24,328 nt of DNA. It comes from a bacterium (GTDB taxonomy: Bacteria; Krumholzibacteriota; Krumholzibacteriia; LZORAL124-64-63). The stretch lies in the NCBI GenBank assembly GCA_031441465.1, contig JANOEP010000021.1:1-24328 (forward strand). The letters are read 5' to 3'. Position 1 is the first letter of the stretch. Every line of letters begins with the position of its first letter. Below are positions 3,937 to 19,939 of this stretch, one piece after another. A model generated the notes under the pieces. That model was not told the DNA's origin. It did no database searches and was given only the letters and a program-made list of their open reading frames with translations. The translations under genes and the position numbers were made by a program.

Positions 3937-5457
3937 TCAGGGCGTGTGGTAGGGCATGGCGAGTTCTTCGACCACGCGGCCGTTCAAGCGAATCCGGAAG
4001 TTGAACGGGTTGGGCCACACCCCGCTGCCCATCTCCAGGCGGACATCCCCGTACGTGAAACCGCGCGTGAAGACGTTCCCCTGGATGGCCGCCGGCCCCA
4101 GGGGCGCGCCCAGCGAATGCGCCACGTCCGGCCAGCCGAACAGGTGCTCGCCGAAGTCGTCCCAGACCGGGTAGCAGCCGTCGATCAGCAACGAGATGGC
4201 GCGGAACGAATCGCCCGGGTTGAGCGTGGTCAGCACGTTCTGGTCGTCGTAGTAGAAGGCGCGGTTGATGTTCTCCAGCAGCAGGTAAGGGCCGCCGTTG
4301 ACGGTGCGCGGCCAGCGCCGCGCGTGCCAGAGGCTGTTGAAGATGCCCGGGTCCATGGCCTTGCGCATCTTGTCCGGGGCCTGGAAGCCGAGGGTCGGGA
4401 ACAGCTCGTAGTTCATGCCGTCGGAGAGCGCCGCGAAGGTGGAATCCGTGTAGGCGCGCTGCCCGTTGAAGACCTGGATGAAACCATCGCCCAGCCGCGC
4501 CCGCAATTCCGTGACCATGTCCGCGCAGGCCGCCTTGTAGGCGGCCAGTTCGTCGGCGTCGTGCATGATGTCGATGCCGTCGCCGTCGAGGTCGGGCTCG
4601 CCGGTCACGTTCACGAAGTCCGGGATCCAGATGCCGGCGTTGAAGTAGTCCCAGAAGACGCCGTCGAAGGCCGTGCCCGAGTGCTCCTGGAAGTCGGCGA
4701 TGATCGCGACGATCGTGTCGCGGCAGGCGGGCTCCAGGATGTTCACGTTGACCTTGCCCGGCCAGCTCTGCAGCGTGTCGCCCGTGGTGGTGGAGGCCCA
4801 GTAGGGCCGCAGGGCCTCCCAGCGCGTGCGGGCGTAGCTGCCGGCCGGGTAGCCCTCCCAGTCGAGGCGGATCATCTGCACCGACACGTAGCCGATGACC
4901 GTGCAGTCGGGATTGACGGCCTTGATGCGCTCGACCACCGACGGCCCGCTCGGGGCGGGATCGCTCCAGAGCACCTCGGCGTCGATGCAGAGCAGGTCGG
5001 CGCGGGCGATCTCCTCGATCATCGCGTCGTCGCTCCAGTCGTGGTCGCCCCAGTGCAGGGCGGCGTAGCGACGCGGGGAGTGGGCCGTGTGGTCGACGCC
5101 GAGATCGCTGGCCGCCACGCGCAGCCTCAGGTCCCCGCTCGCGAATCCGGGGTGGTCGAGGCCGATGTTCCAGGTCAGGACGCGGCCGGCGCCGGGCGCC
5201 ACGCCTGCTCCGGCGTCACCGTCGAGGCTCGGGCAGGGCAGGTCCCAGGTCGCGCCGCCGTCGGGCGAGGCCAGCAGGCTGACGAAGCAGGTGTCGCCTT
5301 CGGCGTCGGCGAGGTCGTAGGCCACGTCGACGATGCCGCTGCCGTCGGTGCGTTGGGCGGTGGACACGTTGCTCACGACGGGGTCGGCGGCCGCGGCGGG
5401 GCCGGCGCCGATCGCCAGCGCGGCTGCGATCACGAGCAGGGCAGCGTGCAGCTTCAC
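3937..5457 (-). CDS. Secreted protein, copy 1: N-terminal Ig-like domain + putative TIM-barrel glycoside hydrolase-like domain
   Basis: 506 aa from GTG 5457 (GTGA overlap with the upstream gene). Signal peptide ends AAAA|DPVVSNV. FDGVFWD and DGMNYE resemble the acid motifs of GH114/GHL-type barrels; DLDGDG is a Ca-binding-like loop. No C-terminal sorting domain. Confidence 0.7.
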   Translation of the reverse strand: MKLHAALLVIAAALAIGAGPAAAADPVVSNVSTAQRTDGSGIVDVAYDLADAEGDTCFVSLLASPDGGATWDLPCPSLDGDAGAGVAPGAGRVLTWNIGLDHPGFASGDLRLRVAASDLGVDHTAHSPRRYAALHWGDHDWSDDAMIEEIARADLLCIDAEVLWSDPAPSGPSVVERIKAVNPDCTVIGYVSVQMIRLDWEGYPAGSYARTRWEALRPYWASTTTGDTLQSWPGKVNVNILEPACRDTIVAIIADFQEHSGTAFDGVFWDYFNAGIWIPDFVNVTGEPDLDGDGIDIMHDADELAAYKAACADMVTELRARLGDGFIQVFNGQRAYTDSTFAALSDGMNYELFPTLGFQAPDKMRKAMDPGIFNSLWHARRWPRTVNGGPYLLLENINRAFYYDDQNVLTTLNPGDSFRAISLLIDGCYPVWDDFGEHLFGWPDVAHSLGAPLGPAAIQGNVFTRGFTYGDVRLEMGSGVWPNPFNFRIRLNGRVVEELAMPYHTP

Positions 5458-6209
5458 GGCAGCATCACCACCTTGCGCGACGGCGCGGCGCGGCCGTCGA
5501 CCGTCAAGCGCACGAGATAGGCGCCGCTGGACACGCGGCGCCCGGCGTCGTCGCGGCCATCCCACGCGCGCGTGTGGAGGCCGGCGGGCAGCTCGGCGTC
5601 GAGCAGCGTGCGGACCCGCCGGCCCGCGGCGTCGTGGATCACGAGGCGGGCGCGGCCGGGCTCGGCGATCTCGAAAGCCAGGTCGGTCTGCGGGTTGAAC
5701 GGGTTCGGCGCCGGCGCCGCCAGCAGCGGGGCGCGCAACGAGGGCGGTGCGTCGGTGCCGGGCAGCAGGATCCGGAAGTCGCCATCTTCGACGACGGACT
5801 GGTTGCCGAACAGGTCGCGGACGGTGACGCGCAAACGGCAGGTCCCGCTGGCGACCTCGGGCACGGGCCAGTTCCAGGCATGGTAGCCGTTCACGAATTC
5901 CAGGTCGATGCTCGCCAGGAGCGAGTTGCTGGCCAGGACGTCGGCCTGATGCCCCTGGATCTCCAGGGTGGGCGAATCGTCCTGCACGGACCAGCTGAAG
6001 ACGACCGAGGCGGGAGAGGTGAACGTCTCGCCGCCCTTCGGCGCCGTGATGTCGTAGATCACCGGCGGCAGCGTGTCGACGACCAACGGGCCGCTCGTGC
6101 CCGCGCCGATGCCGGCCGCGACGGGCCCCGCCGCCGCCAGCAACGTCGCTAGCAACATCGCCGGGGCGTACCCGACCCCGCGGATCTTGTATCGGAACCC
6201 GATACGCAT
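5454..6209 (-). CDS. Secreted Ig-like protein with C-terminal FlgD-Ig/T9SS-type-A-like domain, copy 1
   Basis: 251 aa; start chosen by alignment with the paralog. Signal peptide GPVAA|G. CTD PNPFNPQT...GRRVRTL...WDGRDDAG...SGAYLVRL...RKVVMLP. Confidence 0.8.
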   Translation of the reverse strand: MRIGFRYKIRGVGYAPAMLLATLLAAAGPVAAGIGAGTSGPLVVDTLPPVIYDITAPKGGETFTSPASVVFSWSVQDDSPTLEIQGHQADVLASNSLLASIDLEFVNGYHAWNWPVPEVASGTCRLRVTVRDLFGNQSVVEDGDFRILLPGTDAPPSLRAPLLAAPAPNPFNPQTDLAFEIAEPGRARLVIHDAAGRRVRTLLDAELPAGLHTRAWDGRDDAGRRVSSGAYLVRLTVDGRAAPSRKVVMLP

Positions 6210-6262
6210 CTTGAACTTACCAACTTTCGTCCGAGGCCGACGTGTTGCCCGCCACTTCTTAC

Positions 6263-6292
6263 ATAATATCATGTAATCGGCATTTATTGCAA
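6263..6292 (-). promoter_or_regulatory. Putative sigma70 promoter of duplicated operon copy 1
   Basis: TTGCAA-N18-TATTAT with TGn extension. It aligns with the copy-2 upstream region and overlaps the inverted repeat TTACAT-N6-ATGTAA (6259-6276). Confidence 0.55.
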
Positions 6293-6347
6293 CTCCTGAA
6301 GCCGATTCCCGGCAAGGTCGCGCGACGATCCGCATCGACGGCGGCGC

Positions 6348-7865
6348 TTAGGGGTGATGGTAGGGCAGGGCGATCTCCTCGACCACGTTCCCGTTGATGC
6401 GGATCCGGTAGTCGAAGGGATCGGGCCACACGCCGCTGCCCATCTCCAGGCGGACATCCCCGTACGTGAAGTCGCGTGTGAAGACGTTGCCCTGAATCAG
6501 CGTCGGCCCTAGCGGCGCGCCCAGCGAGTGCACCACGTCGGGCCAGCCGAAGACGTGCTCCACGTAGTCGTCCCATACCGGGTAGCAGCCGTCGATGAGC
6601 AGCGAGACGGCGCGGAACGCATCGCCGGGGTTGAGCGCGGTGAGCACGTAGTTGTGGTCGTAGTAGTAGGCGCGGTTGATGTTCTCCAACAGCAGGTAGG
6701 GCCCGCCGTTGACGGTCCGCAGCCAGCGCCGCGCGTTCCAGAGGCTGTTGTAGACGGCCGGATCCATCGCCTTGCGCATCTTGTCCGGGGCCTGGAAACC
6801 GAGGGTGGGGAACAGCTCGTAGTCGAGACCGTCGGCGAGCGCCGCGAACGTGGAATCCGTGTAGGCGCGTTGCCCGTTGAAGATCTGGATGAAGCCCTCG
6901 CCCAGCCGCGCCCGCAGGCGCGTGACCAGGTCCACGCTGGCGGCCCTGTAGGCGGCCAGCTCGTTGACGTCGGACGCCATGGGGATGCCGTCGCCGTCGA
7001 GGTCGGGATCGCCGGTCACGTCCATGTACGACGGGATCCAGATGCCGGTGTTGAAGTAGTCCCAGAAGACGCCGTCGAAGACCGTACCCGAGTGCTGCTG
7101 GAAGTCGGCGACGATCTCGACGATCGCGGCTCGGCAGGCGGGATCCAGGATGTTCACGTTGACCTTGCCCGGCCAGCTCTGCAGCGTGTCGCCGGTGGTC
7201 GTGTACGACCAGTAGGGCCGCAGGGCTTCGTAGCGCGTGCGCGCGTAGGTGCCGACGGGGGCGTCCGCCCAGTCCAGGCGCACCATCTGCACCGACACGT
7301 AGCCCATCACCTTGCAGCCGGGGTTGACGGCTTTGATGCGTTGGACCACGGAAGGGCTGCTCGGCGGTTTGCTCCAGAGCACCTCGGCTTCGACGCAGAG
7401 CAAGTCGGCGCGGGCGATCTTCTCGATCATTGCGTCGTCCGACCAGTCGTGGTCGCTCCAGTGCAGGGCGGCATAGCGCAGGGGCGAGTGGGCCGTGTGG
7501 TCCACACCCAGGTCGCTGGCCAGCACGCGCACCCGCAGGTCGTCACGGATGATCCCAGGGTGGTCGAGGCCGATGTTCCAGGTCAGGACGTGGCCGGCGC
7601 CCGGGGTCACGCCCGCGCCGGCGTCGCCGCCGAGGGTCGGGCAGGGCAGATTCCAGGTGGCGCCTCCGTCGGCCGAGGCCAGCAGGCTGATGCAGCACGT
7701 GTCCCCGTCGGCGTCGGCGAGGTCGTAGGTCACCTCGAGGATGCCGCTGCCGTCGGTGCGTTGGGTGGTCGTCATGTTGCGCACGACGGGATCGGCGGCC
7801 TTGGCGGCGCCGGCGCCGAGCGCCAGCGCGGCGATGATCGCGAGCAGTGCGGTGCGGTGCTTCAC
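6348..7865 (-). CDS. Secreted Ig-like + putative glycoside hydrolase-like protein, copy 2
   Basis: 505 aa from GTG 7865 (GTGA overlap). Colinear with copy 1 along its whole length (e.g. identical TTGDTLQSWPGKVNVNIL, FDGVFWDYFN, YELFPTLGFQAPDKMRKAMDP). Confidence 0.7.
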   Translation of the reverse strand: MKHRTALLAIIAALALGAGAAKAADPVVRNMTTTQRTDGSGILEVTYDLADADGDTCCISLLASADGGATWNLPCPTLGGDAGAGVTPGAGHVLTWNIGLDHPGIIRDDLRVRVLASDLGVDHTAHSPLRYAALHWSDHDWSDDAMIEKIARADLLCVEAEVLWSKPPSSPSVVQRIKAVNPGCKVMGYVSVQMVRLDWADAPVGTYARTRYEALRPYWSYTTTGDTLQSWPGKVNVNILDPACRAAIVEIVADFQQHSGTVFDGVFWDYFNTGIWIPSYMDVTGDPDLDGDGIPMASDVNELAAYRAASVDLVTRLRARLGEGFIQIFNGQRAYTDSTFAALADGLDYELFPTLGFQAPDKMRKAMDPAVYNSLWNARRWLRTVNGGPYLLLENINRAYYYDHNYVLTALNPGDAFRAVSLLIDGCYPVWDDYVEHVFGWPDVVHSLGAPLGPTLIQGNVFTRDFTYGDVRLEMGSGVWPDPFDYRIRINGNVVEEIALPYHHP

Positions 7866-8605
7866 GGCAGCAACACCACCTTGCGCGACGGGGCGGCGCG
7901 GCCGTCGACCGTCAACCGCACGAGGTAGGCGCCGCCGGACACGCGGCGCCCGGCGTCGTCGCGGCCGTCCCAGGCGCGCACGTGGCGGCCCGCCGGGAGC
8001 GGCTCGTCGGCCAGCGTGCGGACCAGGCGGCCCGCCGCGTCGTGGATCGCGAGGCGGGCGCGGCCCGCGTCGCCGATCTCGAAAGCCAGGTCGGTCTGCG
8101 GGTTGAACGGGTTCGGCGCGGGCGCCGCCAGCTGCGGCGCGCGCAACGCGGGCGGCGCGCCGGTGCCGGGCAGCAGGATCCGGAAGTCGCCGGCCTCGGC
8201 GACGGTCTGGTTGCCGTAGATGTCGCGGGTGGTCACGCGCAGCCGGCAGGCCCCGCTGGCCGCCTCGGCCACGGGCCAGGTCCAAACGTGGTGGCCGTTG
8301 ACGAATTCCAGAGCGGTGCTCGCCAGCAGTTCGCCGCTGGCCAGGACGTCGGCCTGGTGGCCCTCGATCTGCAGGGCGGGCGAGTCGTCCTGCAGGTCCC
8401 AGATGAAGACGATCGAAGCGGGCGAAGAGAAGGTCGCGCCGCCGGTCGGCGCGGTCAGGCCGGTGATCACCGGCGGCACGGTATCGACGGCCACCGGGCC
8501 GCTCGTCGCCGCCCCGATCCCAGCCGCGGCGGGTCCCGCCGCCAGCAAGACCGTCAGTGTGTACCCAACCCAGGCGATCTTATCGCGAATTTCATCACGC
8601 ATCAT
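7862..8605 (-). CDS. Secreted Ig-like protein with C-terminal FlgD-Ig/T9SS-like domain, copy 2
   Basis: About 247 aa; start is 8605 or 8602, with 8623 also possible. Signal peptide GPAAA|G. Paralog of 5454-6209. Confidence 0.8.
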   Translation of the reverse strand: MMRDEIRDKIAWVGYTLTVLLAAGPAAAGIGAATSGPVAVDTVPPVITGLTAPTGGATFSSPASIVFIWDLQDDSPALQIEGHQADVLASGELLASTALEFVNGHHVWTWPVAEAASGACRLRVTTRDIYGNQTVAEAGDFRILLPGTGAPPALRAPQLAAPAPNPFNPQTDLAFEIGDAGRARLAIHDAAGRLVRTLADEPLPAGRHVRAWDGRDDAGRRVSGGAYLVRLTVDGRAAPSRKVVLLP

Positions 8606-13676: not shown

Positions 13677-16600
13677 ATGCCGCGTCGTATAATGTTGTTA
13701 TCACTGGCGTTAGCCGCGACAGCCCTGCTGGCGGGCCTCCCGGCGGCCGCCCTGGACGTCGATCCCGGCCTGCAGGCGGCCCTGGCCGCCAAGGCCGACG
13801 GCGGCACGGTGCCGGTCCTGGTGCTGCTCCCGGGCGGCGCCGACCTGGAATCCCTCGCCCCGTCGCTGGAGGGTCTGACACCCTCGGCCCGGCGCGCCGC
13901 GGTCATCGCCGCGCTGCGCGACCACGCCGCGACGGCGGAGGCGCCCGTGCGCGCGGCGCTGCGCGCGGCGGCGACCGCGGGGCGCGTCGAGAAGGTGCGC
14001 TCGCTCTACGTGGCCAACGCCCTGATCTTCGAGGCCGACGCCGCCGCGGTGGCCGTCCTGGCCGCCGACAAGGCCGCCGGCGAAATGCGCCACGACCGCA
14101 ACTACGACCTGCTCTCGTCCGTCATGGATTCCCGCACACCCGTCGCGCCGGCGCCGGAAGCGGCCGGCGAGAGCCCCCTGCTGGCGAACGTCTGGAGCAT
14201 CGGCTGGATCAACGCCGACGACGCGTGGGCCCTGGGCTACCACGGCGACGGCATCGTCGTCGGCCACATCGATTCGGGCGTCTGGCTGACCCATCCGGAC
14301 ATCGCGAACCGCCTGTGGACCAACCCCGGCGAGGTCGCCGGCAACAGCCTCGACGACGACAACAACGGCTACGTCGACGACGTCCACGGCTACGACTTCG
14401 GCGATCTCGACGGCAACCCCAACGACGACTCCGCCAGCCCCGGCCACGGCACGCACACCGCGGGCACCGTCGCCGGCGACGGCACCGGCGGCACCTCCAC
14501 CGGCGTTGCGCCGGGCGCGCAGATCATGGCCTGCAAGGCGTTCGACAGCACGGGCGCCGGCAGCCTCGGCATGATCTGGCAGGCCTACCAGTACATCCTG
14601 GTGAACGGGGCACGGGTGATCACCATGTCGCTGGGCGTCCCCGGCGTCCTGGACGCGTCGCTGATGCGCTCCGAGCGCGTGGCTTGCAACACCATGCGTA
14701 CGGCCGGCATCACCATCTTCAACTCCTCGGGCAACGACCACGGCGGGGTCAACCCGCCGCCGAACGAGTGCGGGCTGACCGCGCGCGTCCCGGCCCCCTG
14801 GAACGCCATCGACGGCACGCGCTACTCCTCGACCGGTGGCGTCATGGCCGTCGGCGGTACCGGCTACAACAGCAACAGCGGTTACACCGCGTCGTCGCGC
14901 GGTCCCGCGAAGTGGGACAACGTCGACCCCTGGAACGACTGGCCGTACAACCCCGGCGTCGGGCTGCTGAAGCCGGACGTCTCGGCCCCGGCGGTCAACG
15001 TGAACTCGCTGGTGGCCCCGAGCGGCTACTCCGGCAACTCCTGGAGCGGCACCTCGATGGCCTGCCCGCACGCGGCCGGCGTCGCGGCGCTCATGCTGCA
15101 GAAGAACCCGACCCTGTCGCCGGCCGGCGTCGATTCGATCATGGAACTGTCGTCGCTGGATCTCGGCACCATCGGCAAGGACAACCAGTTCGGCTCCGGC
15201 CGCATCGACGCGCTGGCGGCCGTCAACCTGGTCCCGGCGACCCAGGCGCCCCAGCTGTCGTGGAGTTCCTTCGCGATCCTGGACGCGACCGACGACGGCG
15301 TCATCGACCCGGGCGAGGCGTTCGACGTCGTCTTCACCCTGGCGAACACCAGCTCGCTGGTCACGGCCACGTCCGTCGCCGCCGGCCTGGCCGTCGTCGC
15401 CGGCGGGCCGACCACGGTCACCGACGGCGCCGCCGTCTTCGGCACGATCGCGATGAACGGCGGGACGGCCGACAACACCGCCGACCACTTCTCCCTCGTG
15501 GCCGACCCCGGCGCGATCCAGGGCGCGGTCTTCACCATGCTGATGACGGTCACGGCCCAGGACGGCTACGAGGTGACCTTCGACGCGGAGTTCTTCGTCG
15601 GCCTGCCCGAGTGGCGGACCCACGACGTCGGCCACGTCCTGGCCACGGTGACCGACACCGGCTCGCTCGGCTTCACCTCCTCCGACCAGGCCGCGGGAGC
15701 CGGCTTCGGCCCCGCCGGCGCCAACGGGCTGTACGTCGGCTCGTTCTGGGGCGGCGCCAGCGTGAGCTACGTCTGCAACCACGACTACGCCGAGGGCGGC
15801 AACGTCTACGACTGGCGGACCGTCACCGATCCCAACGGGCGCATGACGGACCTGGGCACCGCGATCTCCGATCAGCAGTACCAGGGCATCTACAAGGACT
15901 CCGGCAACATCTCGCCGCGCAACGTCACGGTGACGCAGGAGAGCTTCGCCTTCGCCGACGCGCCCAACGACGACTTCGTCATCCTGCGCTACACGGTGCG
16001 CAACGACGCGGCGACGACGCTCAGCGGCTACTACACCGGCATCTTCTGCGACTTCGACATCGACGACTCGTCGCTGAACCGCGGCGCCGTCGACGCCACG
16101 CGCCGCCTCACCTACATGTACCCCGACGCCGGCGGCGCGTACTTCGGCATCGCCCTGCGCGAGCCGACCACGGCCAAGAACCTGACGCTGATCTCCAACC
16201 CCTCGCACGTCTACCCCAACGGCTATATCAGCGACACCAGCAAGTTCCGCATGCTGAACGCGACGATCTCGACGCCGACGACCGCGACGGCCAACGACTG
16301 GTCGGCCCTGACGTCGGCCGGACCGGTGACCCTCGCGCCCGGCGCAGAGGCCGTCTACCTCTACGCGCTGGTATGGGGCGAGAACCTGGCCGACCTGCAG
16401 GCCAACACGGACGCGGCCCTGACCGTCGACCTCACCGCGCCCACGCCGGTGGCGGACGCGGGCCTGCCGCGCTCGCTCGCCCTGTCCCAGAACGCGCCCA
16501 ACCCCTTCAACCCGCAGACGACGATCGTCTTCGCCGTCGACCGCGCGACCGGTGTGCGGCTGGGCGTGTACGACCTCCAGGGTCGCCTGGTGCGGACCCT

Positions 16601-16748
16601 GGCCGAGCGTGTCTACGCCCCGGGCGAGCACAGTGTCGTCTGGGACGGCCGCGACGATGCCGGCTCGGAGATGCCCTCGGGCCTCTACCTGTACCGGCTC
16701 GAGGACGGCCGGCGCACCCAGACCCGCAAGATGGTGCTCGTGCGGTAA
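13677..16748 (+). CDS. Secreted S8 (subtilisin-like) protease with C-terminal FlgD-Ig/T9SS-like domain
   Basis: 1023 aa. Signal peptide and propeptide; triad GHIDSG / HGTHTAGT / GTSMACPH; oxyanion SGN; CTD QNAPNPFNPQT...WDGRDDAG...SGLYLYRL...RKMVLVR. Confidence 0.95.
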   Translation: MPRRIMLLSLALAATALLAGLPAAALDVDPGLQAALAAKADGGTVPVLVLLPGGADLESLAPSLEGLTPSARRAAVIAALRDHAATAEAPVRAALRAAATAGRVEKVRSLYVANALIFEADAAAVAVLAADKAAGEMRHDRNYDLLSSVMDSRTPVAPAPEAAGESPLLANVWSIGWINADDAWALGYHGDGIVVGHIDSGVWLTHPDIANRLWTNPGEVAGNSLDDDNNGYVDDVHGYDFGDLDGNPNDDSASPGHGTHTAGTVAGDGTGGTSTGVAPGAQIMACKAFDSTGAGSLGMIWQAYQYILVNGARVITMSLGVPGVLDASLMRSERVACNTMRTAGITIFNSSGNDHGGVNPPPNECGLTARVPAPWNAIDGTRYSSTGGVMAVGGTGYNSNSGYTASSRGPAKWDNVDPWNDWPYNPGVGLLKPDVSAPAVNVNSLVAPSGYSGNSWSGTSMACPHAAGVAALMLQKNPTLSPAGVDSIMELSSLDLGTIGKDNQFGSGRIDALAAVNLVPATQAPQLSWSSFAILDATDDGVIDPGEAFDVVFTLANTSSLVTATSVAAGLAVVAGGPTTVTDGAAVFGTIAMNGGTADNTADHFSLVADPGAIQGAVFTMLMTVTAQDGYEVTFDAEFFVGLPEWRTHDVGHVLATVTDTGSLGFTSSDQAAGAGFGPAGANGLYVGSFWGGASVSYVCNHDYAEGGNVYDWRTVTDPNGRMTDLGTAISDQQYQGIYKDSGNISPRNVTVTQESFAFADAPNDDFVILRYTVRNDAATTLSGYYTGIFCDFDIDDSSLNRGAVDATRRLTYMYPDAGGAYFGIALREPTTAKNLTLISNPSHVYPNGYISDTSKFRMLNATISTPTTATANDWSALTSAGPVTLAPGAEAVYLYALVWGENLADLQANTDAALTVDLTAPTPVADAGLPRSLALSQNAPNPFNPQTTIVFAVDRATGVRLGVYDLQGRLVRTLAERVYAPGEHSVVWDGRDDAGSEMPSGLYLYRLEDGRRTQTRKMVLVR

Positions 16749-16770
16749 GGCCATCTGTCCCTGGTCCGAC

Positions 16771-16809
16771 GCGACGGCCCTCTTTCCGACCGGGAAGGAG
16801 GGCCGTCGC
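16771..16809 (+). terminator. Putative terminator hairpin after the S8 gene
   Basis: GCGACGGCCCTC(TTTCC)...(GGAAG)GAGGGCCGTCGC: a 12-bp perfect outer stem. U-tract is poor. Confidence 0.6.
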
Positions 16810-16811
16810 CG

Positions 16812-16840
16812 TTGACGGCGGGACCCGCCGGCCCCATGCT
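16812..16840 (+). promoter_or_regulatory. Putative promoter for a leaderless panE-like mRNA
   Basis: TTGACG-N17-CATGCT, then 6 nt to ATG 16847. No Shine-Dalgarno. Confidence 0.55.
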
Positions 16841-16846
16841 CTCCGC

Positions 16847-17737
16847 ATGGACACGCGACCGTTCCGTCAGAACGTCGTCTTCGGCGCCGGCGCCCTCGGC
16901 AGCTGGCTCGGCGCGCGCCTCGATCCCCCCGCCGTGCTGGTGGCCCGCGGCGAGCACGCGCGCGCGATGCGCGCCGGGGGCCTGCACCTCGCCGGCATCG
17001 AGAACGACGTCGTGCCCGTGATCGTGGCCGACGAATGCCCGCCGTTGGAGCCCGAAGCCCTGTTGCTGGTGGCGGTCAAGGCGACGGACCTGGCGGCCGC
17101 GGCCCGGGCCGTGCGCGGGTGCCTGCGGGAGGACACGGTGGTCGCGGTGGTCGCCAACGGGCTCGCGCCGCAGGAGTCCCTGGGCGGGGCCCTGGGGCGG
17201 CCGGTCGTGAGGATCGTGGCGGAGTTCGGTGCGACGCTGGACGCGCCGGGCAGGGTGTCGGCCTGGGGAGGGCGCGCGCTGCTGCTGCGGGGGGTGCGCG
17301 AGGATCGGGTCGCGGCGGCTCTGGCGCCCACCGGCCTGCGCGTCGAGCGGATCGACGACCTCGCGCGGACCGCCTGGGAAAAGCTCGCCCTGAACTGCGT
17401 GGCCAACCCGCTGGCCGGCCTCACCGGTCGCCGCAACTGCGACCTGGTGGACGACGACCTGACCGACCTGCGGCAGGCCGTGGCCCGCGAGGTCATGGAA
17501 CTGGCGGCCCGCGACGGCGTGGACCTGCCGGACGAGCTGCCCGACCGCATCGACGCCCAGCTGGCGCGCTCGCGCAACCTCAACTCCATGGCGCAGGACC
17601 TGGCGCGGGGCCGCCCCACCGAGATCGAGCACCTCAACGGCTTCGTCGCGCGGCAGGCCGAGGCGCAGGGCTTCGACACGCCGCTGAACCGCTGGCTCGC
17701 CGCGCTGATCCGCCTGCGCGAAGAGAGCGCCGACTAG
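16847..17737 (+). CDS. panE: Ketopantoate reductase (PanE/ApbA) family protein
   Basis: 296 aa. VFGAGALGSWLG, LVARGEH, VAVKA, ANGL, WEKLALNCVANPL, SMAQDLARGRPTEIEHLNG. Confidence 0.85.
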   Translation: MDTRPFRQNVVFGAGALGSWLGARLDPPAVLVARGEHARAMRAGGLHLAGIENDVVPVIVADECPPLEPEALLLVAVKATDLAAAARAVRGCLREDTVVAVVANGLAPQESLGGALGRPVVRIVAEFGATLDAPGRVSAWGGRALLLRGVREDRVAAALAPTGLRVERIDDLARTAWEKLALNCVANPLAGLTGRRNCDLVDDDLTDLRQAVAREVMELAARDGVDLPDELPDRIDAQLARSRNLNSMAQDLARGRPTEIEHLNGFVARQAEAQGFDTPLNRWLAALIRLREESAD

Positions 17738-18624
17738 CGCCCCCGCCCCTGCCAGACCAGCCCGCCCACGATCAGCACCAGCCCGCCCAGCGTCGCCGGC
17801 CGTACCGATTCTCCCAGCACGAACTGGATGAAGACGAGCGACAGGAACGGCGAGAGGAAGATGAGGTTGGCGACACGCGAGGTGTTCTCCGCCAGCTTCA
17901 GCGCCGTCAGCCAGATCACGAAGGTGAAGCCCATCTCCACGGCGCCGACGTACAGCGCGCCCAGCAGGCCCGGTCCCAGGTCCTGCGGGCCCAGATCGGC
18001 GCCCAGGTCCCGCCGCGCCCAGCCGTACAGCAGCACCAGCGGCGTGCCGACGGCGAAGTTCACCAGCAGCCCCGACGCCGGTTCCAGACGCGAGCGCGCG
18101 TTGCCGAGCCAGTAGAGCGCCCACAGCAGCGTGCTGCCCAGGGCCAGGGTCACGCCGACCGGATCGATGCCCCGCCAATCCCGCAGATCGCCGCCGGTGC
18201 TGATCACCGCCACGCCGGCGTAGCACACCAGACCCGCCAGCAGGTCGCGCGCGCGCAGGCGCTGCCCGAGCAGGGGTACCGACAGCCAGGTCAGCGTCAG
18301 GGCCCAGGTGTAGTTCAGGGGCTGCGCGACCTGCGCGGGCAGGCGGTCGTAAGCCTCGAACAGGATCAGGTAGTAGAGGCAGGGATTGATCGCACCCAGC
18401 CCGGCGGCTGCCAGCAGGTCGCGGCGCGGCGCCCGCCGCAGGGCCGTCCAGCCGCGGCGCGCCGTCACCACGCCGGCCAGCACCAGCAGCGACACGGTCG
18501 CGGACCAGGCCAGCAGGGTCACCGGCGAGAGGTGCCGCAGGGAGAGCTTGAAGGCCGTCGCCACGGTCGACCACAGCAGCACCGTTGCGAGGCCCAGCAG
18601 GATGGCCCGACGCTGATCCTTCAT
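17734..18624 (-). CDS. DMT/EamA-family transporter
   Basis: 296 aa, about 10 TM segments. LWSTVATAFKLSL, NPCLYYLILFEAYDRLPAQVAQPLNYTW, NLIFLSPFLSL. Its stop overlaps the panE stop (CTAG, 17734-17737). Confidence 0.9.
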   Translation of the reverse strand: MKDQRRAILLGLATVLLWSTVATAFKLSLRHLSPVTLLAWSATVSLLVLAGVVTARRGWTALRRAPRRDLLAAAGLGAINPCLYYLILFEAYDRLPAQVAQPLNYTWALTLTWLSVPLLGQRLRARDLLAGLVCYAGVAVISTGGDLRDWRGIDPVGVTLALGSTLLWALYWLGNARSRLEPASGLLVNFAVGTPLVLLYGWARRDLGADLGPQDLGPGLLGALYVGAVEMGFTFVIWLTALKLAENTSRVANLIFLSPFLSLVFIQFVLGESVRPATLGGLVLIVGGLVWQGRGR

Positions 18625-18631
18625 GGCGGGC

Positions 18632-18660
18632 AGCATGCGGGTTGGGGGCGGGAAGCGCAA
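18632..18660 (-). promoter_or_regulatory. Putative promoter for a leaderless EamA mRNA
   Basis: TTGCGC-N17-CATGCT, then 7 nt to ATG 18624. No Shine-Dalgarno. Confidence 0.5.
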
Positions 18661-18666
18661 CAAGGA

Positions 18667-18696
18667 CGCGGCCCCCCTCCCGCGAGGGGGGCCGCG
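18667..18696 (-). terminator. Putative intrinsic terminator of the 18723-19766 gene
   Basis: Perfect 13-bp stem CGCGGCCCCCCTC / GAGGGGGGCCGCG with 4-nt loop, followed on the minus strand by TCCTTGTTG. Confidence 0.65.
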
Positions 18697-18722
18697 CCGT
18701 GACCGCGGAGGCGGTGTGCCGG

Positions 18723-19766
18723 CTACCGGTACATCGACTTCACGTCGCTCCAGCTGGCGTTCTCGTTGCCCACCGGCGCGTCGATGGTGACGGTCGTCGC
18801 GCTGCAGGCATCGGTGCCGTAGCCGTCGACGATCATGTAGTACCAGGCCGCGGCGGCGGCCACGTAGGTGATGGTCTCGTAGCCCTCGGACACCGTCTCG
18901 TCGGCGCCGGCGACGCAGGTGCCGGCCGCGTCGGCGCAGTCGGTCACCAGCCACAGGGCGGCGTCGTGGGTGCCCTGCATCGAGGCGCTGAAGGTCTCGT
19001 CCTGGTTCAGGTGGATCTTGTAGACGAGGTCCTTGCCGTCCGAGGAGTAGCCGGTGCAGCCGCCGCTCGGGGCGCTGTAGTCGTCGGCGGCCAGGCACAG
19101 GTCCACGTCGAACACGGTGAGGCCCTGCGCCTGCAGGTCGATCGCGTTCTCGCAGAGGTCGTTGGCCGGCGGCGGCGGCGGCGGCGGCGCGCCCTCGTCC
19201 AGGGACACCGCGTCGAAATAGTGGTCGGCGCCGTCGTTGCCCGCGTAGATGAAGGCGATCGTCACGGTCTGGCCGTCGTAGGCGGACAGGTCGACGTCGA
19301 CCAGGTCCCAGATCCAGTTGCCGGCGGTGAACTCGTTCAGGAAGTTGTAGACCTCGTTGCCGTTCACTTCGACGGTGAAGTTGGCGTTGGTCGCCCAGTA
19401 CATGCTGCCTTCGGTGGCGAAGATCAGGTGGTCCTCGTTGGCGGCCGAGTCGATCAGGTGCGTGAACGAGAGGACTTCGTACTGCGGGACGCCGATGTCC
19501 GCCTGCCAGGGAACGTAGGCCGCGGCCGCGCCCTCGTACGGCGTCGCGAAATCCTGGACCCAGGTGTACGCGGGGTTGGTGATGGTCTGGGTCCAGCCCA
19601 CGGGCGGGAAGGCGCCCTCGAAGCCTTCGAGGTAGGCGCGCACGGCCTCGGTGCGGAACACGGAGCGGCCGTCGTTGGTGCGCGGCGGGACCTTGTCCGC
19701 GGCGAAGGCGGCGACGGTCAGGGAGAGGATGGCCAGGATGACCAGCGGTAACAGACTGCGACGCAT
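18723..19766 (-). CDS. Secreted adhesin-like protein: cleaved-adhesin/choice-of-anchor-J-like beta-sandwich, Pro7 linker, Cys-containing PPC-like domain, short C-terminal SWxxVKxxYR tail
   Basis: 347 aa from ATG 19766. Signal peptide; EGFEGAFPPVGW...VDLSAYDGQTVTIAF; PANDLCENAIDL...WYYMIVDGY; ends APVGNENASWSDVKSMYR. Confidence 0.72.
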   Translation of the reverse strand: MRRSLLPLVILAILSLTVAAFAADKVPPRTNDGRSVFRTEAVRAYLEGFEGAFPPVGWTQTITNPAYTWVQDFATPYEGAAAAYVPWQADIGVPQYEVLSFTHLIDSAANEDHLIFATEGSMYWATNANFTVEVNGNEVYNFLNEFTAGNWIWDLVDVDLSAYDGQTVTIAFIYAGNDGADHYFDAVSLDEGAPPPPPPPANDLCENAIDLQAQGLTVFDVDLCLAADDYSAPSGGCTGYSSDGKDLVYKIHLNQDETFSASMQGTHDAALWLVTDCADAAGTCVAGADETVSEGYETITYVAAAAAWYYMIVDGYGTDACSATTVTIDAPVGNENASWSDVKSMYR

Positions 19767-19939
19767 GACGACCCCCCAAGAGTTGAATGGTGCTGCTGAG
19801 GCTCGACGCGCCCGGGTGGCCCCGGCCGAGCGTCCGCCGTTCACGATGTGCCGCGATGGGCACGGCGTCCCGGGCGACAGGATCTCATGTTCATCCGTGG
19901 GGTGCGAACTCGACCATCCATGTTGGGATCCTCGCTATG

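Follow-up and report, generated by a model that had tools for sequence, protein, structure and literature searches.

Paired genes of a Krumholzibacteriota bacterium may encode secreted enzymes and carrier proteins that share a split immunoglobulin-like domain

A stretch of 24,328 nucleotides (nt) from a bacterium of the phylum Krumholzibacteriota (GenBank assembly GCA_031441465.1, contig JANOEP010000021.1, positions 1 to 24,328; hereafter the window) carries four genes, which lie head to tail on the minus strand at 3937-8605 and are termed carrier B, cargo B, carrier A and cargo A. With a probability of roughly 0.6, the two members of each pair share one immunoglobulin (Ig)-like domain that is split between them: the carrier would complete the domain of the cargo, an enzyme, by donor-strand complementation, and the enzyme, which is untagged, would share the C-terminal sorting domain (CTD) of the carrier. 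This reading, which rests on sequences and structure models, was put forward in an initial annotation of the window and is supported here by three largely independent computed lines, namely the gene neighbourhood, a missing strand derived from tandem domain arrays, and the prediction of the complex with controls. The window corresponds to contig C21 of a genome of 3.49 Mb with approximately 70% G+C, which is 96.8% complete.

In the mechanism proposed, each pair would encode the two halves of one split Ig-like domain. Cargo and carrier would each cross the inner membrane by the Sec pathway, and the overlap of their genes would favour matching amounts. The Ig-like domain of the cargo, named PVV after its first strand, would consist of strands A to F and lack the seventh strand, G, and the enzyme would have no export tag. 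The first ~14 mature residues of the carrier would be the detached G strand and would insert between strands A and F of the cargo, antiparallel to F, giving a non-covalent heterodimer in which the enzyme could use the sorting domain of the carrier for export, for attachment to the cell surface, or for both. The same socket could be borne by unrelated enzyme heads, and a carrier could shrink to a signal peptide, the strand, a short linker and the CTD. We infer that the two proteins really bind, that they assemble in the periplasm, and that the complex is transported through the translocon of a type IX secretion system (T9SS) and attached to the surface.

Both pairs lie on the minus strand and each is coupled, as initially annotated, by a GTGA overlap, which was read in the sequence at 5454-5457 for pair A and at 7862-7865 for pair B. 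At both junctions, which read ccGTGAag, the GTG start codon of the cargo gene overlaps the TGA stop codon of the carrier gene, and an AGGTGG motif is found ~12 nt upstream. The two carriers are 76% identical to each other and the two cargoes 79%.

The carriers are composed of a signal peptide, a conserved N-terminal peptide, an Ig-like body, a proline-rich linker and a CTD of ~80 residues. In carrier A (5454-6209, minus strand, 251 amino acids (aa)) the signal peptide is encoded at 6114-6209, the peptide of 14 residues at the mature N-terminus at 6072-6113, the Ig body at ~5760-6071 and the CTD at 5481-5723. Carrier B (7862-8605, minus strand, 247 aa) has the same parts, with the 14-residue peptide at 8480-8521 and the T9SS-like CTD at 7889-8131; an alternative start is possible 8-9 codons upstream, and the database copy of this protein has 256 aa. 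Both CTDs were detected with a CTD profile, Pfam and NCBIfam. They match Pfam FlgD_ig (PF13860) at 43.6 and 44.5 bits (cut-off 27), and reach 21.9 and 18.3 bits with the NCBIfam model of the T9SS type A sorting domain (TIGR04183), just under its cut-off of 23. No catalytic family was found in either carrier when Pfam and NCBIfam were scanned. The peptides sit where the initial annotation had placed them, and its description of the carriers as proteins with a FlgD/T9SS-like CTD and no catalytic domain is confirmed by the FlgD_ig matches above cut-off and the lack of any catalytic family. An AlphaFold2 model of carrier A (predicted local distance difference test score, pLDDT, 85.3) has PorU of Porphyromonas gingivalis (6za2) as its best structural match.

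Cargo A (3937-5457, minus strand, 506 aa) begins with a signal peptide (~5386-5457), continues with the PVV domain (5104-5391) and ends in a (beta/alpha)8 glycosidase head (~4048-4923). Cargo B (6348-7865, minus strand, 505 aa) likewise has a signal peptide, a PVV domain without the last strand (7512-7799, domain profile E 7e-40) and a GHL15-type glycosidase. Both PVV domains hold strands A to F only; strand F, the last, covers residues 85-95 of the mature chain in cargo A, and the domain of cargo B is shortened relative to the repeat unit of the arrays described below. No CTD was found in either cargo in the Pfam and NCBIfam scan, and no family of these databases matched the PVV region (cargo residues 22-125), while GHL15 (PF14885) was matched at 41 bits in cargo A and 36.8 bits in cargo B (cut-off 27). 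The AlphaFold2 model of mature cargo A (pLDDT 95.2, predicted template modelling score 0.92) shows a (beta/alpha)8 head, for which the best Foldseek matches are GH168 endo-1,3-fucanases (8rg3_A, E 1.8e-14, target template modelling score 0.66, 17% identity). By family match and by model the head is a GHL15/GH168-like glycoside hydrolase, the activity of which is predicted. The cargo thus has the make-up first described for it, a signal peptide and an Ig-like domain that runs into a TIM-barrel enzyme domain, with no CTD.

The PVV domain is an Ig-like domain of ~96 residues with an Asp-box. Its profile was matched by 6425 representative proteins at E <=0.001 among 1.84 billion, including giant proteins with up to 30 copies. 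Among solved structures the profile found no relative, its matches being to the Asp-box of sialidases alone (best E 0.00059), and a search of the ESM Atlas returned only unnamed clusters with scores <0.9.

What a complete PVV unit contains can be read from the tandem arrays of other organisms, in which consecutive copies are spaced by a constant 14-19 residues. The 224 of these segments that were aligned, which are 15-19 residues long, have the consensus G-x-x-x-x-S-s-x-F-x-V-D-T-x-x-P-V-V, with S in 167 of the 224, F in 203, V, L or I in 222, D in 154 and N in a further 28, and P in 215. The segment comes after strand F (r-V-R-l-r-A-x-D) and a g-x-g-N turn. Its alternating sequence pattern fits a seventh strand, G, and its position after the F-strand turn fits as well, resembling what is modelled for the Ig body of carrier A, which is complete with strand F at residues 93-101 and strand G at 106-117.

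Measured against this unit, the cargo domain is cut short. The end (114-115) of a profile of the repeat unit, which has 115 positions, was reached by 744 of 1039 matches in array-type proteins, but none of the 74 Krumholzibacterial PVV copies extends past position 106 and 60 of them end at 97-100. The 150 best representatives include 24 single-copy PVV proteins, and all of these are without the strand motif, the next domain or a stop following directly. In the model of cargo A the strands of the PVV domain lie at residues 6-14, 21-29, 36-43, 57-59, 62-65, 68-76 and 90-96, with none further until the barrel. Across the cargoes PVV may be N- or C-terminal, and the C-terminal forms end 0-4 residues past the last strand. 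An incomplete Ig domain in the cargo, as had been suggested, is therefore borne out relative to the tandem-array domain.

The conserved peptide of the carriers has a consensus of roughly G-x-[GAD]-x-S-x-x-x-x-[LIV]-[DN]-[ST], and its aspartate is invariant in 23 aligned long carriers. Each of its positions agrees with the strand consensus of the arrays (S, then two residues, a hydrophobic one, a further residue, [VLI], D and [TS]), and in long carriers the x-P-P-[VI] that comes next matches the start of the next array domain. When a 19-position profile built from the arrays only was run on the genome, the two carriers of the window ranked 1 and 2 of 23,331 frames, the matches lying precisely at the mature N-termini, with 13.5 bits (E 0.075) for carrier A and 13.3 bits (E 0.092) for carrier B; the next best frame scored 6.2 bits. 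Both the positionwise fit and, more modestly, these ranks agree with the earlier suggestion that the peptide resembles the missing final strand. Judged by sequence, carrier and cargo together look like a two-domain piece of an array that has been cut between strands F and G.

The complex was predicted from mature cargo A (485 residues, alignment of 114 rows) and residues 1-128 of carrier A (alignment of 23 rows). Three runs scored 0.77, 0.73 and 0.74 (median 0.74) and the best control scored 0.00. In the calibration of this score the mark was reached by 116 of 157 solved complexes and by 2 of 215 mismatched pairs, figures which apply approximately here, as our own alignments were used. The partner had a pLDDT of at least 81, and at least 94% of the contacts were common to the runs. 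The interface is formed by carrier residues 1-17, together with 47-48 and 102-106, and by cargo residues 2-26 and 77-98; residues 1-17 of the carrier chain correspond to the last residue of the signal peptide and the first 16 mature residues. The cargo-carrier residue pairs with the lowest error are 94-5, 92-7, 91-8, 89-11, 86-13 and 85-14, and since the sums of these pairs are constant at ~99, the pairing with strand F is antiparallel. On the other side, carrier residues 4-6 are in contact with residues 7 and 10 of the cargo, which belong to strand A. In the model the peptide lies where a canonical G strand would lie and runs the same way, and six nearly invariant PVV residues are within the interface (V8, Q15, R16, R93, A96 and D98 in the numbering of alignment A1).

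It had been predicted that the peptide would fill the position of the last strand of the cargo domain, and this is what the complex model shows, beside strands F and A and at 0.74 against 0.00 for the controls. The converse, packing of the peptide onto the carrier's own Ig domain, was not seen in the monomer model of carrier A, where residues 1-18 are coil and pLDDT is 50 for residues 1-10 and 75 for residues 11-20. As PVV has no sequence relative among solved structures, the model could not have memorised one; strand complementation as a general pattern is well represented among them.

In the genome of the window, the CTD profile matches 127 open frames and the PVV profile three genes, and each of these three genes is directly downstream of a CTD frame that bears the peptide (3 of the 127 CTD frames). 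A profile of the peptide scored 27.3, 22.8 and 21.5 bits for the three carriers, the last value being that of carrier B, and 9.8 bits for the next best of 23,331 six-frame open reading frames (ORFs). It was trained partly on the same three carriers, and so only the absence of the peptide from the other 124 CTD frames counts as evidence. The third PVV gene, on contig C66, encodes an S8 peptidase in which PVV forms the very C-terminus, and a 23-nt spacer with GGAGG separates the gene from that of a small carrier upstream.

The arrangement recurs in relatives. In a first set of 41 related genomes, 19 had PVV, with 38 matches, and a CTD gene on the same strand was found directly upstream of 32 of the 35 PVV genes that could be assessed, the remaining three of the 38 matches being at contig ends. 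The peptide was visible in 31 of these 32 upstream CTD genes, and the 32nd is interrupted by a contig end. A second set comprised 20 further regions from genomes outside the first set, with 36 PVV matches, and here a carrier with a recognisable peptide was found for 16 of the 36 genes, including all seven loci of the second family of the phylum that has PVV. Across the phylum, PVV was found in 49 of 151 genomes and in two families only (41 of 60 and 7 of 10 genomes), and in none of the 80 genomes searched from the seven other families. The two gene types therefore do co-occur in other genomes, as the initial annotation required of its proposal. Its 1:1 pairs of anchor and cargo are present too, but they are not universal, as there are carrier-less arrays and cargoes with no carrier beside them.

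The association of carrier and PVV persists across different cargo heads and with PVV at either end of the cargo. The heads in the first set comprise GHL15, Peptidase_S8, S8 with a GDSL lipase, FGE-sulfatase and LVIVD repeats, and the second set adds FGE-sulfatase with a GH32N-like domain. Among the genes scanned in the carrier-less array the heads are FGE-sulfatase, Laminin_G_3, FG-GAP and GH130/GH32N-like. FGE-sulfatase-like heads on this domain, which the initial annotation had mentioned, are thus verified in the relatives.

What the carriers of the various loci have in common is limited to signal peptide, N-terminal peptide and CTD. At ten loci (L057, L068, L073, L075, L077, L078, L117, L118, L120 and L123) the carrier is short and without an Ig body, so that the mature protein consists of the peptide, a linker of ~15 residues and the CTD. 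One more short carrier, the eleventh, is that of L124, which has a degenerate peptide without the conserved aspartate, and at L076 the same N-terminal peptide heads a CTD protein of ~1000 aa. At another locus (L045, G001:C28, ~6174-6957, plus strand), the second carrier gene of a tandem pair is split over two frames, an apparent frameshift or sequencing error, and its cargo gene is intact.

Two further ideas about the carriers were considered and dropped. Full homology of the carrier Ig body to PVV is unsupported, as hhalign aligns the F strand only (17 columns, probability 13.7%) and the carrier bodies gave no match to the PVV repeat-unit profile at E 1e-5; of the original description, the presence of Ig-like domains in both gene products stands and a relationship between these two domains is weak. 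An isopeptide link of the SpyTag kind was considered as the conserved aspartate is sometimes an asparagine, and was rejected because the PVV domains of the window contain no lysine.

The sorting domain itself may point to a type IX route. The carrier CTD, a C-terminal beta-sandwich of ~80 residues, resembles those of T9SS type A substrates (TIGR04183/PF18962), such as RgpB and PorU of P. gingivalis, but in those proteins the CTD is part of the exported protein, whereas here the enzyme would borrow that of its partner. The genome has genes for a SprA-like protein (470.8 bits, cut-off 200), a full-length PorU-like protein (403 bits, cut-off 420) and, adjoining it, a PorV-like barrel (95 bits, cut-off 250); the GldK model was matched via its FGE-type part only. 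The 127 CTD frames make a T9SS-like pathway likely.

A donor strand of this kind is familiar from chaperone-usher pili (Pap and Fim, with the chaperones PapD and FimC), in which the pilins have an Ig-like domain without a G strand and the N-terminal extension of a partner fills its place beside F. The modelled complex shares with them an acceptor without a G strand and an N-terminal donor whose direction is antiparallel to F, as it is in a completed pilus. It differs in that a heterodimer of enzyme and carrier is expected rather than a fibre, with the Ig body of the carrier complete and the cargo having no donor peptide; the acceptor is a module of an enzyme, at either terminus, the partner bears a T9SS-type CTD, and only a 1:1 complex is expected. 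The Usher family (PF00577) had no match in the genome, and the single PapD_N-like match (29.7 bits, cut-off 23) is on another contig (G000:C46:24862-25275, plus strand), unlinked to the pairs. As no usher was found, the chaperone-like gene is unlinked and no fibre is expected, the pairs are not a member of the chaperone-usher class, though the mechanism appears similar.

Complementation by a chaperone is also the first step of chaperone-usher assembly, and the strand beside strand F in our complex model could be taken in the same sense, with the carrier acting in the periplasm as a PapD-like chaperone, or else inhibiting the cargo for a time, and being released before or after export instead of serving as a lasting anchor. 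We regard this as highly improbable. The carrier has the kind of sorting domain that 127 frames of the genome bear, which argues for its export and against residence in the periplasm. In addition, the peptide is antiparallel to F as in the final, stable complemented state, and no usher was found in the genome, the single PapD_N-like gene being elsewhere.

Several observations weigh against a shared, split domain. The score of the complex expresses how confident the model itself is, and the calibration was made with other alignments than ours. The E-values of the 19-position profile are marginal and the C66 carrier is outside its 12 best matches, while a 14-position profile of the G strand was not significant, with carrier B at rank 5 (4.7 bits, E 65). 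In carriers with an Ig body, D-[ST]-x-P-P could simply be how bacterial Ig domains commonly begin. GldL and GldM of the T9SS motor were not found in the genome; their models also match 0 of 14 control genomes, and so this absence says little. In the first set, three PVV genes have no upstream CTD gene (L053, L054 and L074), and in the second, 13 of the 36 PVV genes stand in one array of one genome with no carrier per gene and another seven have no or an unclear carrier. The PVV genes of GHL15 type without an adjoining carrier are those of L053, L054 and L119 and the second PVV gene of L124, and the PVV gene of L121 is behind a 931-aa CTD protein without a recognisable peptide. Lastly, in other phyla (80 loci gathered with the single protein P0270, four of which have PVV genes), the six PVV genes of the three assessable loci (L128, L136 and L173) have no adjacent carrier by profile.

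Some of these loci have features of their own. At L053 (6787-8232, minus strand) and L054 (5459-6853, minus strand), the place of the carrier is taken by a GHL15 paralogue without PVV, the signal of which is lipoprotein-like, a cysteine following the hydrophobic stretch; the sequence suggests another way of attaching the same enzyme to the envelope. The ORF at L074 (G014:C7, 4956-6281, plus strand) is a fused frame in which a carrier-type signal peptide and ~12 residues of donor peptide are followed by PVV, which starts at profile position 17 and so has no strand A, and then by an FGE-sulfatase head, with no CTD; it may reflect a deletion between carrier and cargo or an assembly artefact. The array of 13 PVV genes in a row (L115/L116, G143:C247:104000-124536) has PVV N-terminal in some genes and C-terminal in others, and its first gene is preceded by that of a CTD protein of at least 810 aa, the N-terminus of which is outside the fetched stretch. 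In the unrelated bacterium of L136 (OY843751.1), genes at 372-2630 and 3981-6110 (plus strand) flank a PVV-FISUMP gene and end in the same 30-residue tail; the downstream one has a weak look-alike of the donor peptide after its signal peptide (4.3 bits, not significant).

The PVV genes without an adjoining carrier and the marginal significance of the short profiles would also fit the absence of any specific interaction. PVV would then be a carbohydrate-binding or stalk module, consistent with its attachment to several glycosidases and with arrays of up to 30 copies, which are typical of adhesin stalks; the small CTD proteins would be surface proteins in their own right that happen to be encoded in the same operons, and their peptide would be the leftover of a domain boundary, D-T-x-x-P being the usual interdomain junction in the arrays. 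This explanation appears quite unlikely, as it does not account for the peptide being kept in short carriers that have no Ig body, for its absence from the other 124 CTD frames or for the loss of the strand in every Krumholzibacterial PVV copy (0 of 74). Nor does it account for an association that persists when the head (peptidase, FGE-sulfatase, LVIVD) and the place of the domain in the protein change, or for a peptide that is modelled in the place of the missing strand when controls score 0.00. Moreover, sugar binding and the acceptance of a strand are not mutually exclusive.

Where the two proteins meet is a separate matter. The same evidence of binding would be expected if the complex formed outside the cell, the carrier being attached by its CTD and the cargo leaving by another route and docking onto it, much as dockerin enzymes do on a cohesin scaffold, with no joint passage through the T9SS. 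Carrier-less cargo genes and the 13-gene array would fit free docking onto shared carriers, and the motor genes of the T9SS were not detected. However, the tight coupling of the genes (GTGA overlaps, or a 23-nt spacer) and the Sec signals of both products suggest co-production in matching amounts and in the same compartment, and a domain short of one strand would probably lack stability until its partner arrives. Docking after separate export is therefore considered unlikely, though it deserves some weight, and assembly of cargo and carrier before a common export is preferred.

T9SS substrates are described as needing their own folded C-terminal domain (PMC9251779), and in the T9SS literature covered here each of them bears a sorting domain of its own. 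No report of a T9SS cargo without a CTD riding on a partner was found in the literature searched, the coverage of which excluded most subscription journals. In Tat hitchhiker export, a signal-less subunit rides with a partner that bears the signal. The likeness is that a folded complex would be exported on the signal of one partner; the difference lies in the membrane, the machine and the signal.

Two more systems invite comparison. Type V pili of Bacteroidota (FimA, Mfa1) form by strand exchange after proteolytic maturation, and the T9SS exports the maturing proteases. The pairs would have in common with them the superphylum, the trans-complementation of a beta-sandwich by a strand and a link to the T9SS, but the type V pilins are polymerising lipoproteins that need a strand to be cleaved off first. 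Here, in contrast, the signal sites are of the A-x-A type, with no lipobox cysteine in cargo or carrier, and the donor strand is N-terminal and would be free after removal of the signal peptide; no polymerising architecture was seen and no polymer is expected. Cohesin and dockerin are each a complete, folded domain, and they bind by their surfaces, with calcium. As in cellulosomes, one small docking module would be found on many enzymes and a partner would hold these at the cell surface, but here a single fold would be divided between two chains.

Donor-strand complementation itself is a known principle; going by the sequences and models, what would be new here is that the sorting domain of an enzyme is supplied in trans. 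If true, the prediction of secretomes in the Fibrobacteres-Chlorobi-Bacteroidetes group would change, since a protein that lacks a CTD is at present assigned to the periplasm. Donor-strand complementation would then reach beyond the assembly of fibres to the modular display of enzymes, and the system would provide a small natural pair of peptide (~14 residues) and domain (~96 residues) and give a function to a widespread domain that has neither a Pfam or NCBIfam family nor a solved relative.

A wider proposal is held more tentatively, at somewhat less than even odds: the PVV domain without strand G may be a widespread socket by which many secreted enzymes are loaded onto strand-donating carriers, and type IX-type secretion may export or display hetero-complexes that have one sorting domain between them. 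It would be in keeping with the 24 single-copy proteins that have no strand motif, with the 6425 representative matches of the domain, and with the spread of the socket over peptidases, FGE-sulfatase-type proteins, glycosidases, lectin-like domains and repeat proteins. Were this so, it would be the first donor-strand system that joins enzymes with carriers rather than making fibres, as well as the first route for hitchhikers through the T9SS, and it would offer protein engineering a natural plug-and-socket pair.

The split arrangement was also considered as an artefact of gene fission or of a frameshift, and this was rejected: each gene has its own signal peptide, a simple split would have given the reverse of the order seen, in which the carrier comes first, and dozens of genomes show the same arrangement.

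Further long open frames of the window that have no Pfam match at E 0.001 are at 17035-18702 (plus strand), 16685-18574 (minus strand) and 18723-19844 (minus strand). A promoter-like site was found upstream of carrier A at 6263-6292 (minus strand). It is a consensus match only, with nine of the twelve hexamer positions matching and a TG before the second hexamer, and two such sites were found against 0.4 expected. The genes around the pairs are ordinary housekeeping genes, save for one S8 subtilase with the same kind of CTD (13677-16748, plus strand, 1023 aa). In this protein the FlgD_ig-type CTD is in cis (Peptidase_S8 E 1.4e-42, FlgD_ig E 3.2e-09), so that the ordinary one-chain arrangement is found beside the split pairs.

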